DNA from: a virus | Taxonomy: Duplodnaviria > Heunggongvirae > Uroviricota > Caudoviricetes | Virus record (IMG/VR): IMGVR_UViG_2698536549_000018 | Length of the DNA stretch: 14,213 bases | Direction: 5' to 3' (one strand) | Part shown: piece by piece, positions 2,979 through 14,213 of the stretch | How the letters are laid out: each line of letters starts with the position of its first letter | How positions within the stretch are numbered: position 1 is the stretch's first letter | Translations under genes and position numbers: made by a program | Notes under the pieces: model-generated | What the model was told of the DNA's origin: nothing | Databases searched by the model: none | The model's input: only the letters and a program-made list of their open reading frames with translations

Positions 2979-3055
2979 TGGACCGCCATCGAGGACTCGA
3001 ACCCCGCGCAGCCAGCTTCGAAGGCTGGCGCTCTATCCCGATGAGCTAATGGCGG
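2979..3055 (-). tRNA. tRNA-Arg (anticodon UCG by manual fold)
   Basis: Reverse complement folds as a cloverleaf: acceptor CCGCCAT/ATGGCGG (7 bp), D-arm GCTC..GAGC, anticodon stem CCAGC/GCTGG with loop CTTCGAA, T-arm CGGGG-TTCGAGT-CCTCG, discriminator and encoded CCA. Confidence 0.8.
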
Positions 3056-3064
3056 TATGTGATA

Positions 3065-3139
3065 TGGTGGCCTTGCTGGATTTGAACCAGCGACCTGGCG
3101 ATTATGAGTCGCTCGCTCTCACCACTGAGCTAAAGGGCC
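3065..3139 (-). tRNA. tRNA-Ile2/Met-like (anticodon CAU), ileX-like, with an apparent 1-nt deletion in the 3' acceptor strand
   Basis: Reverse complement GGCCCTTTAGCTCAGTGGTGAGAGCGAGCGACTCATAATCGCCAGGTCGCTGGTTCAAATCCAGCAAGGCCACCA resembles E. coli tRNA-Ile2. Anticodon loop CTCATAA, T-loop TTCAAAT. The 3' acceptor strand reads AAGGCC where AAGGGCC is needed to pair with 5' GGCCCTT. Confidence 0.7.
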
Positions 3140-3258
3140 GGGCGCAGGATAATAACGTTACGAAATAAATGTTGCAAGCATTCAAGAATCACCTGGTTAA
3201 AAATTACCCTTACTTCCTCCACCAGCGCATTCACCATTTCTATCCGAGATAAGTGGCA

Positions 3259-5907: not shown

Positions 5908-6063
5908 TTACTTCTCAGATTCGTAGTCCACGAAGACAGCGACCTCCGTCTGGCCGGTTCGGATTCGTACCTCGCAGAGGTCTTTCCTCGTTACCAGTGC
6001 CGTCACTATGACGGTTAAACAGATGACGATCAGGGCGACTAACATCGCCTTTTGCTGCTTCAT
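5908..6063 (-). CDS. hok: Hok/Gef-family type I toxin (51 aa); in-frame upstream ATG at 6120 gives a 70-codon mok-like frame
   Basis: MKQQKAMLVALIVICLTVIVTALVTRKDLCEVRIRTGQTEVAVFVDYESEK matches the Hok signature (single TM helix, conserved ..RK.LCE.R...G..EVAAF..YES..). GGAG SD upstream of the ATG at 6063; terminator downstream. Confidence 0.85.
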   Translation of the reverse strand: MKQQKAMLVALIVICLTVIVTALVTRKDLCEVRIRTGQTEVAVFVDYESEK

Positions 6064-6274
6064 AGACTGCTTCTCCTTGCCTTTCGGCACGTAAGAGGCT
6101 AACCTACATTTGTGAGACATAGATTGGGCCTCAGATTAATGTTAAGCGTCTTGCAGGACGCGTAATGTTAACTGGGGCTTTTCTCTATCTGCCTTTTGGT
6201 GTTCATGCCTGAGGCAGATAGCCTCAAGCACCCGCAGCAATTCTACTTAACTCTCCTTTTCCCGCAAACCGTTT

Positions 6275-9139: not shown

Positions 9140-10240
9140 TTACCCCCTGAAGCCTGGCGGAATTTCGGTATCCGGTTCAGAAACATGATTCACACAACGC
9201 TGGTTGTTCGTGCCGCTTACCGGGAGCAACCAGGGGTTTTCAAAATTCCGGTCCGGTCCAAAAAACGTCGTCGCTCGCTGAACAAATTCCGTTCCCGTTT
9301 TCCCGGTAGTCGCCAAGTATCTTGCGTAACGCCTCACGCCATCCAGCATGGCCTCTGGTGGCACCCCCTCGCGTAATCTGGCCTTCCAGGCACTGAAAGC
9401 GGATTTCTTCGGGTTTGCCCCGGCACGCAACGGGTATTCCCGCCAGACCTGTTCGAACACATCCGGATAATCCACTCGTCCCACAGGCTGCCCGGTGTTT
9501 TCCGGGACTACCTGATCGGCTTCCCGCTGAATGGCGGAATCGGCTTCAGGCTGCTGCAGTTGGTGTGATTGTTCCGGCCTTGCGGTCATCGCCTGCTGCA
9601 CAGCGCCCGAATCGGCTTCCGGTGTCGTGCCTGCTGGCTGACCAGGATTGACGTTCTGAACATCCCCTGCCTGGTTCGTGGCGATTTTTTCGCCATGAAG
9701 CATAGTATTTTTATCCTGATCCTGTTCTTTCTCCTGTTCTTGGCTTAGAAGCCCCTTTAAAGCCTCTTCGAAGCCCCTTGCTGAATTCCGGCGATTATTC
9801 CGCCTCACATCCAGATGGAAATCCGTTTTATATCTGTCGTAAAAGGCTGACAGAAAGGCGTTTTCAGGTAATGATGCATACTCATTCCTGACACCTGCAC
9901 AACGGTTATCTCCAGGCTTCAACGTTTCCCCAACCTGCCAGGCTGCCATTTCATGGACCCAGACCATCTCGGCATCATGGTCATAGCTACAAAAACCAGC
10001 TTCAACAGCCCTTTTAAGCCCCTTCGAAGCCCCTTCCGGACCAAGCCCGGTTTCATGAGCAAGGTACAAAACTGGCAGGTAATACAAACCCAACATATTT
10101 GCGTGAGGGGATGTCATCAGGTAAAAAGCAACAACTTGCGCTTCTGCACCCGCCTTTCTAAGTTCTCTCCCCGTTTCTCCCAGCCAGAATCGCGGGGAAA
10201 CTTTTGCATAATCACGCATGTTCACCTCGTCTGGAGCCAA
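9140..10240 (-). CDS. Putative phage replication-initiation / replisome-organiser-like protein (366 aa; alternative ATG start at 10219)
   Basis: Largest early-operon ORF, at the position of O/YdaU-type replication genes. Low-complexity Gln/Glu/Pro-rich linker between N- and C-terminal domains. Function assigned by position and general resemblance only. Confidence 0.7.
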   Translation of the reverse strand: MAPDEVNMRDYAKVSPRFWLGETGRELRKAGAEAQVVAFYLMTSPHANMLGLYYLPVLYLAHETGLGPEGASKGLKRAVEAGFCSYDHDAEMVWVHEMAAWQVGETLKPGDNRCAGVRNEYASLPENAFLSAFYDRYKTDFHLDVRRNNRRNSARGFEEALKGLLSQEQEKEQDQDKNTMLHGEKIATNQAGDVQNVNPGQPAGTTPEADSGAVQQAMTARPEQSHQLQQPEADSAIQREADQVVPENTGQPVGRVDYPDVFEQVWREYPLRAGANPKKSAFSAWKARLREGVPPEAMLDGVRRYARYLATTGKTGTEFVQRATTFFGPDRNFENPWLLPVSGTNNQRCVNHVSEPDTEIPPGFRG

Positions 10241-12263: not shown

Positions 12264-12356
12264 ACTTATATGGTCTGATGGGAACCTCCTAGAGCCCGTT
12301 ATCTAGCCCCCCATCACCTCTTCCACATATCATCGCCTATTAGGTTTTCGTCAAAA

Positions 12357-12402
12357 ACATTAGGCGCAGCCTATTGACAATTAATTAGGCATTACCTATA
12401 GT
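12357..12402 (+). promoter_or_regulatory. Left operator/promoter: rightward promoter (-35 TTGACA 12374-12379, 17-bp spacer, -10 TATAGT 12397-12402) overlapped by operator-like sites ATTAGGCGCAGCCTATT and ATTAGGCATTACCTATA
   Basis: Half-sites TTAGGC/GCCTA match the right-operator consensus. Consensus -35 with 17-bp spacing to a TAtAgT -10, downstream of the repressor stop. Confidence 0.55.
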
Positions 12403-12746
12403 TCTCCCATACCAACCCACCCCGCCCACAGAACACCGGGCAATACTTCGAGTTACCCGGCAGTGATTAGGGGTTAAGTAGCCAGCCCGAGGCGTATGAA
12501 CATGACGGCGGGAACACTTTGTATAACAGCGCAGCAGGTTTTTAGTTCCGCTACCCCGGCGTTAAGGGGAAATGAGGTCAACATGGATACGCTCAATCTT
12601 AGCAACAACGAATCTCTGGTATGCGGTGTGTTCCCTAACTAGGACGGCACCTTCACCGCGATGACGTATACCAAAAGTAAAACGTTTAAAACCGCAGCTG
12701 GCGCGCATCGCTGGTTAGCAAGAAACACTGACTGATGAGGTTGACG

Positions 12747-13106
12747 ATGGAATTTAAATATTTACCGCCTTCAATCCAGGAGATTGCAGCACACACACTT
12801 CGTCATCGTCTGAACGAACTTGAATTGGAATCGGTAACAAAAAAAGACACTGATAATATGGCTCGTAATGTGCGCGATGCGTTTACTGGGCTGTTTTCAG
12901 ATACAGCTTTAAATATCCATGGCACAGAGGATACAGCAAAACAATTTGCAGAAAAAGAAGTGGAAGATCTCAGTTCAAAGAGCCAGAAACAGCCAAACAA
13001 CCATGAAATTAACGAACTGCTTCTGGCAACAGGCTTCATAAATATTAACGAATATGAACGCCGTAAAAAAATGTTATCTGATCAATCCATCAAGATATCT
13101 TTTTAG
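12747..13106 (+). CDS. Hypothetical early-left protein (119 aa from the ATG at 12747)
   Basis: GAGG 6 nt upstream of the ATG at 12747; acidic, helical-looking sequence; no family recognised. Confidence 0.55.
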   Translation: MEFKYLPPSIQEIAAHTLRHRLNELELESVTKKDTDNMARNVRDAFTGLFSDTALNIHGTEDTAKQFAEKEVEDLSSKSQKQPNNHEINELLLATGFININEYERRKKMLSDQSIKISF

Positions 13107-13268
13107 CATCAGCGTTTCTACGTTATTAAAACCATCAGATTTTAACATAGCTTCGATTCGCTGATTTAAATTGCCAACTAACTGTTGATACTGAGTAGAT
13201 GGAAGCATGTGTACCAGCTCCTTGAGAACACAATAACATGCACCAAGTTTTAACTCCTGCTCTGACAT
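13074..13268 (-). CDS. Hypothetical small protein (64 aa from the ATG at 13268), convergent with and overlapping the 3' end of the 12747-13106 gene
   Basis: GGAGG 5 nt upstream of the ATG at 13268. Its 3' 33 nt overlap the convergent plus-strand gene. Confidence 0.4.
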   Translation of the reverse strand: MSEQELKLGACYCVLKELVHMLPSTQYQQLVGNLNQRIEAMLKSDGFNNVETLMLKRYLDGLIR

Positions 13269-13619
13269 TTTATCCTCCATTGAGGTTACTGGTTGAGAAT
13301 GGAGACCTCTCGTGACAGCGTGTGGTCGTGCGCCGGACACGGATAAGAATCCGGCACTGACAGTTTACTGAAAGGATATATCCCTGAAAAGTCAGGGCAT
13401 AACACGAAAGCGCACGGCGAGATTCCTTTGCATATAAGGCTTGTCGTTAAATTTCTTCAACCGTGCGTTTCCGGTTGTGGCAATCCGCGAAATAGCGCGG
13501 CGGTAAGTATGGCGGGGTTATTCCTTCCCCCGTTGAGGAGACCGGGTTGTCAGGTTGACCATACGCTTAAGTGACACCCCAGCCACAACAACCTCTGTTA
13601 TCACTTTTCTGGTGATTCG

Positions 13620-13644
13620 GCGGAAATGGATATCCGCTCTTTTT
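13620..13644 (+). terminator. Candidate plus-strand intrinsic terminator (GCGGA-N8-TCCGC followed by TCTTTTT)
   Basis: 5-bp stem at 13620-13624/13633-13637, then T-run at 13640-13644. Short stem, so modest confidence. Confidence 0.35.
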
Positions 13645-13821
13645 AAAGTGAATTTTGTGATGCGGTGAATGCGGCCATGCGCACGCGGAACAGTTAAAAC
13701 AAGCGGTCTTTTACTTGCGTAACAGACATCAACTAACAATCCGGCGTTAATTGTTAACTGGTTAACGTCACCTGGAGGCACCAGGCACGGCATCACAAAA
13801 TTCATTGTTGAGGACGCGATA

Positions 13822-14010
13822 ATGGAAACGTTATTACCAAACGTTAATACGTCTGAAGGTTGTTTTGATATTGGTGTTCTGCTCAGTAACCGGGAGTTTA
13901 CTGAAGATGCCATTAATATGAGGAAATATGAGCCTTATCTGCTCAATGATAATTCCATACTTTCCCGAATTGCTCTTCTTGAACTTGGTATTTTCGGAGA
14001 ACGTCAATGA
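13822..14010 (+). CDS. Hypothetical small protein (62 aa), first of a translationally coupled pair
   Basis: GAGG 7 nt upstream of the ATG; its stop overlaps the next start (ATGA). Confidence 0.5.
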   Translation: METLLPNVNTSEGCFDIGVLLSNREFTEDAINMRKYEPYLLNDNSILSRIALLELGIFGERQ

Positions 14011-14195
14011 CTTCAGCATTTGCACTGATGATGACGGTTTTTCTTATAACGGGTGAATCACAGAATGTGATTACCGGAATTTATGCAAGTAAAGAATCCT
14101 GCCTCCAGGCAAGAGACGAGCAAAAATTTTCTGGTGAATGCCTCCCGCTAAAAAAAGTATCGCTGTACCTGAATAACGAAACACCGGCTGGATAA
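14007..14195 (+). CDS. Hypothetical small protein (62 aa) with N-terminal hydrophobic/signal-like segment, second of the coupled pair
   Basis: GGAGA 6 nt upstream; N-terminal AFALMMTVFLITG segment; ATGA overlap with the preceding gene. Confidence 0.5.
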   Translation: MTSAFALMMTVFLITGESQNVITGIYASKESCLQARDEQKFSGECLPLKKVSLYLNNETPAG

Positions 14196-14213
14196 CCCTC
14201 CAGCCATATTAAC

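Follow-up and report, generated by a model that had tools for sequence, protein, structure and literature searches.

Results

Identity and organization of the interval upstream of dicB

The DNA analysed here (IMG/VR virus record IMGVR_UViG_2698536549_000018; 14,213 nucleotides (nt), referred to below as the window) is part of a Rac/Qin-type lambdoid prophage, and this study concerns its interval from position 13269 to 13821, which ends at the start of the gene dicB. From position ~13330 to 13821 the interval aligns at 88% with the stretch between the ydfC end and the dicB start in the Qin prophage of Escherichia coli K-12, and in this alignment the K-12 dicF gene falls on positions 13606-13644. 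The same block is present in phage Tritos, where DicF is annotated, and in many Shiga toxin (Stx) and 'PPompW' phages. As a whole the locus is already known: it is the dicF cassette of the dicBF operon that blocks E. coli cell division. We consider it very probable that in this Rac/Qin-like lambdoid prophage the interval forms the noncoding RNA cassette of a left operon of the dicBF type, and that it acts as a plus-strand RNA rather than as protein-binding DNA.

A preliminary description of this DNA had placed a coupled pair of small genes downstream of the interval. These are dicB (13822-14010, plus strand; Pfam DicB PF05358, E 6.4e-37, and RefSeq annotation of identical proteins), with a Shine-Dalgarno sequence (SD) GAGGA at 13811-13815, and a ydfD-like DUF1482 gene (14007-14195, plus strand; Pfam DUF1482, E 1.7e-13, and annotation in relatives), translationally coupled to dicB through an ATGA overlap. 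The left edge of the interval is exact, the minus-strand phrog_4987 gene starting at 13268. When divergent relatives from IMG/VR, E. albertii and K-12 Rac were compared with it, the interval could be divided into a junction, two leader modules (domains A and B), a small RNA (sRNA) locus in the position of dicF, and a structured domain C. The spacer between the sRNA and dicB measures 177 nt here and 174 nt in K-12.

The same description regarded the interval as noncoding, and this was borne out. A 131-codon ATG-initiated open frame does exist on the minus strand at 13518-13913; however, its 131-aa product has no Pfam or PHROG match, it overlaps dicB, and its frame is not kept in homologues, the minus-strand open frame ranging from 67 to 203 codons across 64 distinct homologous sequences. 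In addition, the indels in the alignment with K-12 are not multiples of three. A protein-coding role for this open reading frame (ORF), or for short plus-strand ORFs, is in our view extremely improbable. A scan for tRNA and transfer-messenger RNA genes detected nothing in the interval. The description of the interval as GC-rich holds only relative to its flanks (0.48-0.49, versus 0.35 upstream and 0.38 in dicB).

The structured leader modules

The junction (13269-13329) is the 5′ untranslated or upstream region of the minus-strand gene, with an SD GGAGGA at 13273-13278 on that strand. Its identity to K-12 is 40%, versus 83-91% further right, and it is thus non-homologous. The identical arrangement of phrog_4987 gene and RNA leader at this junction was found in 11 loci.

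Domain A (13330-13483, plus strand) is a structured pre-sRNA leader that occurs in all relatives, its identity being 83-88% with K-12, E. albertii and phage Tritos. It contains two short hairpins pointed out previously: the GCCGGA/TCCGGC hairpin is present, at 13332-13337/13350-13355 instead of 13331-13354, and CCCTGA-AAAG-TCAGGG lies at 13382-13397 exactly as reported. A reading of the latter (CCCUGAAAAGUCAGGG) as a lambda boxB was rejected, since CCCUGA-AAAG-UCAGGG forms a 6-bp stem with a 4-nt loop, as opposed to the 5-bp stem and GNRNA-like pentaloop (GAAAA) of boxB; this reading also fails on conservation, the stem being shorter in K-12 and a different hairpin occupying the position in Rac-type versions. 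The main element of domain A is a long stem (13398-13417/13461-13479) of 18 pairs with two small interruptions, which is kept in 8 divergent versions with compensatory A-U to G-C and G-C to U-A exchanges.

Domain B (13484-13605, plus strand) is a Qin-type insert with hairpins at 13485-13500 and 13513-13532 and an outer helix at 13507-13512/13559-13564. It is 90-91% identical to K-12, where its counterpart makes up most of the 190-nt DicF precursor, and is not found in Rac-type (KilS) versions. Its 3′ end is an A/U-rich single strand, the place at which RNase E makes the DicF 5′ end in K-12. Compared with K-12, the noncoding domains A and B together (83-91%) are better conserved than the dicB coding sequence (70%).

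In K-12, the promoter dicBp drives ydfABC-dicF-dicB-ydfD; RNase III generates a 190-nt DicF precursor, from which RNase E produces the 53-nt form, the 3′ end being made by termination, and an RNase III cut 19 nt past the terminator gives a 72-nt DicF (PMC10448788, PMC5069750). The published K-12 RNase III ends map inside the two longest predicted helices of the K-12 fold. The corresponding helices here are the domain A stem and 13647-13667/13786-13806, the closing stem (P1) of domain C. The 5′ end of the 190-nt DicF (PMC10448788) maps in the 3′ arm of the long stem, at the equivalent of 13467|13468, and the RNase III 3′ end of the 72-nt DicF (PMC5069750) falls in the P1 5′ arm. Both the 18 pairs of the domain A stem and the 21 bp of P1 have the geometry of an RNase III substrate (about two turns of double-stranded RNA). 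By analogy with K-12, the long stem of domain A appears to be the equivalent of its RNase III site.

A short allele occupies the position of DicF

The sRNA locus (13606-13644, plus strand) holds a 39-nt short DicF allele, UUUCUGGUGAUUCGGCGGAAAUGGAUAUCCGCUCUUUUU. It lies where DicF is expected, on the same strand, between the ydfC-side leader and dicB and ~175 nt upstream of the dicB start. Both an sRNA and a plus-strand terminator at 13620-13644 had been proposed for the interval; the sRNA is this locus, identified by homology, and the terminator is its 3′ end, in the slot filled by DicF in Qin and KilS in Rac. The terminator consists of a 6-bp stem (4 G-C pairs) at 13619-13638 with an 8-nt loop, followed by T5 at 13640-13644 (U5 in the RNA), as in a Rho-independent terminator, and 13619-13644 was the single plus-strand terminator-like site that the terminator scan returned in 12500-14213.

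The first 10 nt of the short allele, UUUCUGGUGA, are identical to K-12 DicF, and the next nucleotides are UUCGG versus CGUUU. The alignment with K-12 dicF gives a net shortening of 19 nt, the K-12 segment UAUCAGUUUUACUCCGUGACUGCUCUG being replaced by AAAUGGAUAU, and the allele no longer has the central and 3′ segment through which DicF pairs with ftsZ and pykA. The 3′ region is required for base-pairing with the ftsZ ribosome-binding site (PMC5069750), the function from which the DicF family takes its name. The predicted duplex of the short allele with ftsZ (-60 to +30) has an energy of -15.6 kcal/mol, worse than 99% of shuffles, while that of K-12 DicF is -38.5. With the ftsZ-pairing segment lost, it is very unlikely, judging from these pairing predictions, that the short allele would inhibit FtsZ synthesis as K-12 DicF does. 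For xylR, DicF uses its single-stranded 5′ seed; the match of the short allele to the K-12 xylR site AAACGUCACC ends after GGUGA, which would keep 5 pairs. The Rfam DicF model (RF00039; threshold 48 bits) gave no match in 13000-14000 even at E<=10; the same model scores 76.7 bits on K-12 and 43.5 on a second E. albertii allele, and returned no score for the short allele in comparison locus L084.

The type strain of E. albertii carries the short allele as well, and so do IMG/VR loci whose DicB is identical to that encoded here. A census of complete E. coli genomes, using the full 76-nt query at >=95% identity, recovered it in 445 of 5,426 (~8%), O157:H7 included. The 12 matches listed across the ranking, from 12 different genomes, carried no annotated feature under the allele.

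These observations bear on whether the short allele is a decayed remnant, that is, a terminator or attenuator devoid of trans-acting sRNA function. The absence of the ftsZ/pykA-pairing region, the interrupted xylR match and the failure of the DicF covariance model to detect it speak for such decay. On the contrary, the allele is stable and common, as seen in the 445 genomes including O157:H7 and in E. albertii, and its 13-nt single-stranded 5′ end and terminator hairpin are intact. Moreover, other phages put different seeds, such as KilS, in the same slot, as expected of a slot under selection for sRNA function. Decay is a serious candidate, but we regard it as the less probable outcome; at the least, the short allele is an intrinsic terminator before dicB.

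The sRNA slot and KilS

Altogether, the DicF slot was found to contain DicF, the second E. albertii allele, the short allele or KilS-type seeds (UGUGUGUAGUC...). The latter were observed in five comparison loci (L091, L124, L152, L157 and L080) and in K-12 Rac (L209 3406-3503, minus strand), where the sRNA is the annotated KilS. KilS is a Northern-verified sRNA, also detected by RNA interaction by ligation and sequencing (RIL-seq), for which an own promoter has been suggested (PMC8175672). Its annotated 5′ end sits in the 3′ arm of the long stem, the helix cleaved by RNase III in Qin, and this location suggests by analogy that KilS may likewise be a processing product. The Rac-type contig L124 also carries the sRNA RalA (the RalR antitoxin; 216.7 bits) at 9891-10069 on the minus strand.

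Domain C is a pseudoknotted RNA domain

Domain C (13647-13806, plus strand; 160 nt) was delineated as a pseudoknotted five-helix RNA from the minimum free energy (MFE) fold and covariation. P1 (13647-13667/13786-13806; 21 bp) is the closing stem. Inside it lie P2 (13670-13683), with a bulged A; a variable P3 (~13698-13740); P4 (13743-13750/13762-13769), with its loop at 13751-13761; and P5 (13771-13775/13781-13785), with the loop AGGCA. The pseudoknot pairs the junction strand CAGUUAA (13691-13697) with UUAACUG (13754-13760) in the P4 loop. The dicB SD follows P1 by 4 nt, and dicB starts 16 nt after domain C.

Relatives of domain C were collected by scanning IMG/VR for the UCACCNGGAGGCACCNGGCAC motif, which yielded at least 58 sequence clusters with a common architecture: a P1 ending in GGUG/CACC, AAU, a P2 with a bulged A, the junction strand, a variable P3, P4, and a P5 with the AGGCA loop. 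P1 covaries, its sequence and length both changing, with 17-22 bp in the type found in early operons (for example, CAACAGACCUUGCAAUGCAGUG/CACUGCAUUGCAAGGUCUGUUG). The helix between loop and junction is present in almost every cluster with differing sequences (CCAGUC/GACUGG, AUCAGCG/UGCUGGU, CUGGUG/CACCGG and GCCAGGUCG/UGACCUGGC, among at least 32 distinct ones). Matched loop and junction partners form a mean of 6.4 bp, versus 4.45 bp when partners are crossed between clusters, and a helix score of at least 5.5 is attained by 89% of matched and 21% of crossed partners.

The structure was also evaluated on 22 sequences, of both types, in a plain MAFFT alignment with 500 shuffles. The named structure leaves 83.5% of cells paired, as compared with 66.2% in shuffles, and its covariation score is 0.454 versus 0.162; none of the 500 shuffles reached either value. 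When the 3′ partners were slid along, pairing fell to 35-50%. By helix, pairing is 92% for P1, 98% for P2, 79% for the pseudoknot and 100% for P5, and all 6 pairs of the pseudoknot show double-sided changes. The 58% obtained for P4 is an underestimate because MAFFT shifts its arms by one column in many rows; parsed directly, the P4 arms pair in every parsed sequence, at least 36 distinct arm sets being paired throughout. In the distinct P1 and P4 helices, G.U pairs number 68, as compared with 13 for A.C, the mismatch to be expected if the opposite strand were pairing. Therefore, the pairing takes place in RNA of the plus strand and does not reflect a DNA palindrome.

These results reassign the GTTAA(C) triplet to which attention had been drawn as a possible regulator-binding DNA array. 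The repeats are present (GTTAA at 13746-13750, GTTAAC at 13753-13758 and at 13761-13766), with spacers of 2 and 2 nt rather than 1 and 3, and the block is invariant in homologues. They correspond to the P4 5′ arm GGCGUUAA, the P4 loop UUGUUAACUGG and the P4 3′ arm UUAACGUC, that is, to the arms and loop of one RNA hairpin whose helices covary. In favour of an array for a regulator of a dicB-ydfD promoter ~55 bp downstream, a palindromic hexamer is present three times at close spacing just ahead of dicB, and PMC10448788 cites earlier work in which a promoter upstream of dicB was suggested. The hexamer occurs 4 times in the 14.2-kb window, versus 2.95 expected, two of the copies lying 2 nt apart here. 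However, the P4 arms keep their complementarity while changing (GGGUUCAG/CUGAACUC, GAUACCAG/CUGGUAUC, GACUGUAA/UUGCAGUC), the middle repeat changes in step with a partner sequence 60 nt upstream, a dependence for which a DNA operator would have no use, and the excess of G.U over A.C is likewise at odds with an operator. Furthermore, the promoter scan detected no sigma-70-like site in 12500-14213, and primer extension and Northern blots revealed no internal promoter in the K-12 operon (PMC10448788). A DNA array is thus a highly improbable reading of the repeats. Reading GGTGAAT as a sigma-70 pause (-10-like) element was also discarded, since its position 2 is not the key A, and it is equally conserved far from promoters.

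Domain C is related to the STnc100/PasD core and occurs in several genomic contexts

A search of Rfam, as had been recommended for this interval, gave nothing at gathering thresholds. The sole signal was a match of 13651-13799 to STnc100 (RF02076; 25.3 bits, E 0.003, model positions 21-154 of 206), whose gathering score of 47 bits domain C does not reach. Sub-threshold matches to this family were also obtained with K-12 Qin, two E. albertii loci and one kilR-type locus (31-38 bits), and the E-values across the dicB/kilR leaders were 5e-5 to 3e-3. The UCACCNGGAGGCACCNGGCAC motif occurs three times in the window, in two STnc100 copies and in domain C, where it matches exactly at 13769-13788 and P5 has a U-A pair in place of G-C, a compensatory change. 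On these sequence features, domain C can be classed as a distant relative of the STnc100/PasD sRNA core.

The relatives fall into several types. The early type has a P1 of 17-22 bp, usually with a DicF-like terminator directly ahead of it. Downstream of this type comes dicB, kilR (NF008465, E 3.9e-48), a YdaE-family gene, or a Rha/Ash gene, and in K-12 Rac it stands between KilS and kilR. In the promoter-proximal type (comparison loci L088, L092, L107, L122 and L155), P1 has 6-10 bp and begins a few nt after a TTGACA-17/18-TAAATT promoter, and an intrinsic terminator follows. The ORFs downstream look like holin and endolysin genes, so that the RNA would be the leader of a late or lysis operon. 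The STnc100 type has its own terminator and follows accessory genes inserted in the late region, as it does in this window.

The left operon and the rest of the window

The left operon starts from a strong PL-like promoter, TTGACA-17 nt-TATAGT (12374-12402, plus strand), which was read directly in the sequence and is the analogue of dicBp. It is embedded in repeated ATTAGGC/GCCTAAT motifs (12330-12402) downstream of a RacR-like repressor gene, and these repeats look like operators for that repressor; racR is annotated as such in a 98.6%-identical genome. The promoter is presumed to be active by analogy with K-12, in which dicBp is the sole promoter for DicF and dicB (PMC10448788). It is followed by a ydfA-like DUF1391 frame with an in-frame stop (12584-12735, plus strand), which the annotation of the 98.6%-identical genome lists as a pseudogene. 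The place of K-12 ydfB/ydfC is occupied by a convergent pair whose 3′ ends overlap by 30 nt, namely a phrog_2151 gene (12735-13106, plus strand, 123 aa; PHROG, E 2.7e-54) and the phrog_4987 gene (13077-13268, minus strand, 64 aa; PHROG, full length, E 3e-49), and no promoter was detected for the latter. In the closest genomes, exonuclease, excisionase and integrase genes come after the ydfD-like gene. According to the annotation of the 98.6%-identical genome, the order is that of a dicBF-type left operon: RacR-like gene, promoter, DUF1391 pseudogene, cassette, dicB, DUF1482 gene, and exonuclease, xis and int. There was no N-like gene among the window ORFs examined, and a DicB scan of genome contigs returned E. 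albertii alone.

The other features lie on the minus strand. The two STnc100 sRNA copies identified by Rfam (113 and 172 bits) are located at 1-193, cut by the window edge, and at 1953-2165. One copy is just downstream of an apparent AraC-family regulator gene (854-1576) and the other just downstream of an ORF for a TolA C-terminal-domain protein (2275-2700). A Q antiterminator gene (PF06323; 3353-4045) is followed directly downstream by tRNA-Arg(TCG) and tRNA-Met(CAT) genes (2979-3140). This layout of a Q gene and then tRNA genes is typical of Stx-type phages, and the TolA-like and AraC-like ORFs occupy the place of the toxin gene. A full hok/sok-type element (6061-6233; Rfam sok, 119.7 bits) and genes for RusA and DUF968 were also found on this strand.

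Discussion

Proposed processing of the transcript

By comparison with K-12 and from the conservation of the cassette, we propose that a transcript would start at the repressor-controlled PL-like promoter (~12374-12402) and run through domains A and B. RNase III would cut the long stem at 13398-13417/13461-13479, with trimming by RNase E, as K-12 homology suggests. Most polymerases would then stop at the terminator 13619-13644 and release the sRNA of the DicF slot, partial termination at 13644 serving as an attenuator before the toxic dicB. Read-through transcripts would enter domain C, where the 21-bp P1 would be a second RNase III site. Cleavage of P1 would separate off the sRNA part, cut out a compact RNA of ~120-140 nt that resembles the STnc100/PasD core, and give the remaining dicB-ydfD mRNA a short leader with its 5′ end just upstream of the SD.

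Several points weigh against this interpretation of the cassette. The cleavages, promoter use and termination efficiency are extrapolated from K-12 rather than from transcripts of the window, and rnc-dependent cleavage in vivo comes from the K-12 orthologue only (PMC10448788, PMC5069750). The interval folds more stably than shuffled sequences, but with similar MFE z-scores on both strands (-4.1 for plus and -4.7 for minus), so that folding energy cannot choose the strand. The short sRNA fails both sequence-based tests for DicF and may lack any trans function. P1 carries one G.G mismatch in this window (13664/13789), and the convergent minus-strand gene at 13077-13268, located between promoter and cassette, could hamper plus-strand transcription. 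A study of dicF-like prophage sequences (Faubladier & Bouche 1994), outside the literature compared, may overlap part of the conservation described here. Finally, a processing signal is probably not the whole function of domain C, because its invariant loops and junctions exceed the needs of an RNase III site.

Possible functions of domain C

With regard to this additional function, control in cis of the downstream gene and release of an STnc100/PasD-like RNA that engages host factors appear about equally likely. In the first case, domain C would be a cis element for lethal genes that senses a protein, a ligand or the state of RNA polymerase and thereby sets termination, mRNA stability or translation, RNase III cleavage being secondary. 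It always lies beside an intrinsic terminator and ahead of host-killing functions (dicB, kilR, or apparent holin and endolysin ORFs), its junction and loop nucleotides AAU, UCACC, AGGCA and GGCAC are invariant across types, and P1 ends 4 nt from the dicB SD. On the other hand, no alternative (switching) structure covaries and no similarity to HK022 put was found; besides, a constitutive antiterminator before the terminator of a late leader would be lethal, so that such a role would need a further factor. Overall, regulation in cis is conceivable but rather doubtful. One specific version, a riboswitch-like exchange between P2 and the STnc100 terminator (both containing GGAGGGGC), was rejected, as this complementarity is absent from other subtypes.

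In the second case, domain C would function in trans as an independent RNA of the STnc100/PasD kind that associates with Hfq and/or CsrA and is produced by RNase III excision in the early type and by direct initiation in the late leaders. PasD is Hfq-dependent (PMC8550237), PasD2 is the most abundant RNA of CsrA ternary complexes (bioRxiv 10.64898/2026.08.12.744399), and PasD and STnc100 have been reported as structural homologues (bioRxiv 10.64898/2026.05.13.724894). In addition, a cut in the middle of the 21-bp early P1 would leave ~10 bp, like the P1 length of the promoter-proximal type (8-10 bp). However, no RNA of ~120-140 nt between dicF and dicB or between kilS and kilR is reported in the literature searched, the early type has neither the 3′ terminator nor the U-tail usually needed by Hfq-dependent sRNAs, and the homology to STnc100 lies below the Rfam gathering score. 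As for CsrA, the GGA of P5 straddles stem and loop, which is not the classical context of a CsrA site, and this reading of the P5 loop is a lead only. A trans-acting RNA is thus possible, although we are inclined to doubt it.

The broadest formulation, which we put forward tentatively as an unlikely but attractive generalization, is that domain C belongs to a widespread five-helix phage RNA fold, shared by the STnc100/PasD core, the dicB/kilR leaders and the lysis-gene leaders, and is a discrete functional RNA with a host factor (for instance CsrA, Hfq or RNA polymerase) as its binding partner, made both by RNase III excision and by direct initiation. If this were true, the seed-pairing sRNA functions reported so far would be add-ons to the domain C scaffold. 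The function of domain C could be tested with structure-guided mutants in the K-12 dicF-dicB and kilS-kilR spacers.

Implications

In the literature searched, we found no published description of the short allele, whether in itself or as a common variant of the DicF slot, of a relationship between the STnc100/PasD core and the dicF-dicB and kilS-kilR spacers, or of the covarying pseudoknot. Because the short allele is unannotated and yet present in ~8% of genomes, counts of 'dicF copies' and inferences on DicF-dependent filamentation in pathogens may mix alleles that target ftsZ with others that do not. The DicF position is better seen as a slot with exchangeable seeds in a conserved processing frame, which makes it a useful model of phage sRNA evolution. 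What separates the sRNA from the toxic gene is no passive linker but a pseudoknotted domain shared with STnc100/PasD and the leaders of late genes.

Comparison with known systems

The closest known system is dicF with the ydfC-dicB spacer of K-12 Qin, which has the same succession of a structured leader, an sRNA with its terminator, a structured spacer of ~175 nt, dicB and ydfD, and whose two helices with published RNase III sites are also present here. The window differs from it in the sRNA, of 39 nt here versus 53 nt in K-12 and with a different seed after nt 10; in the unrelated convergent phage genes that replace ydfB/ydfC; in ydfA, which is a pseudogene here; and in the repressor, RacR-like here and DicA in K-12. 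The KilS/kilR 5′ untranslated region of K-12 Rac shares domain A with its long stem, an sRNA with a DicF-like terminator, a domain C with an extended P1, and a gene for a division inhibitor. Unlike the window, however, Rac has no domain B, its seed is UGUGUGUAGUC..., and the downstream gene is kilR instead of dicB.

With STnc100/PasD, which are sRNAs of lambdoid/Stx prophages, domain C has in common the core fold, that is, a P1 ending in GGUG/CACC, AAU, P2, P4 and the near-invariant UCACCNGGAGGCACCNGGCAC (P5). In contrast, its P1 has 17-22 bp versus 8 in STnc100, it has no 3′ terminator of its own (none was found in 13806-13822), and it lies in an early left operon and not in the late region. 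The loop-junction pseudoknot is also absent from the consensus structure line of STnc100 in Rfam.

The put RNA of phage HK022 offers a positional analogy only, as a structured RNA placed early in lambdoid operons, in a phage with no obvious N gene there. The put RNA consists of two stem-loops of ~70 nt with no closing stem (PMC9378689). Domain C comes after the first terminator and not before it. Homology with put was rejected, since the motifs of domain C are absent from HK022 22000-34000, a segment that covers the early and immunity regions.

Long imperfect hairpins between early cistrons that are cut by host RNase III are known from the lambda N leader and from the early intercistronic sites of T7, where the cuts separate functional RNAs and give the downstream message a new 5′ leader. 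These known sites are simple hairpins, whereas in the cassette described here the stem closes a conserved, multi-helix pseudoknotted domain.

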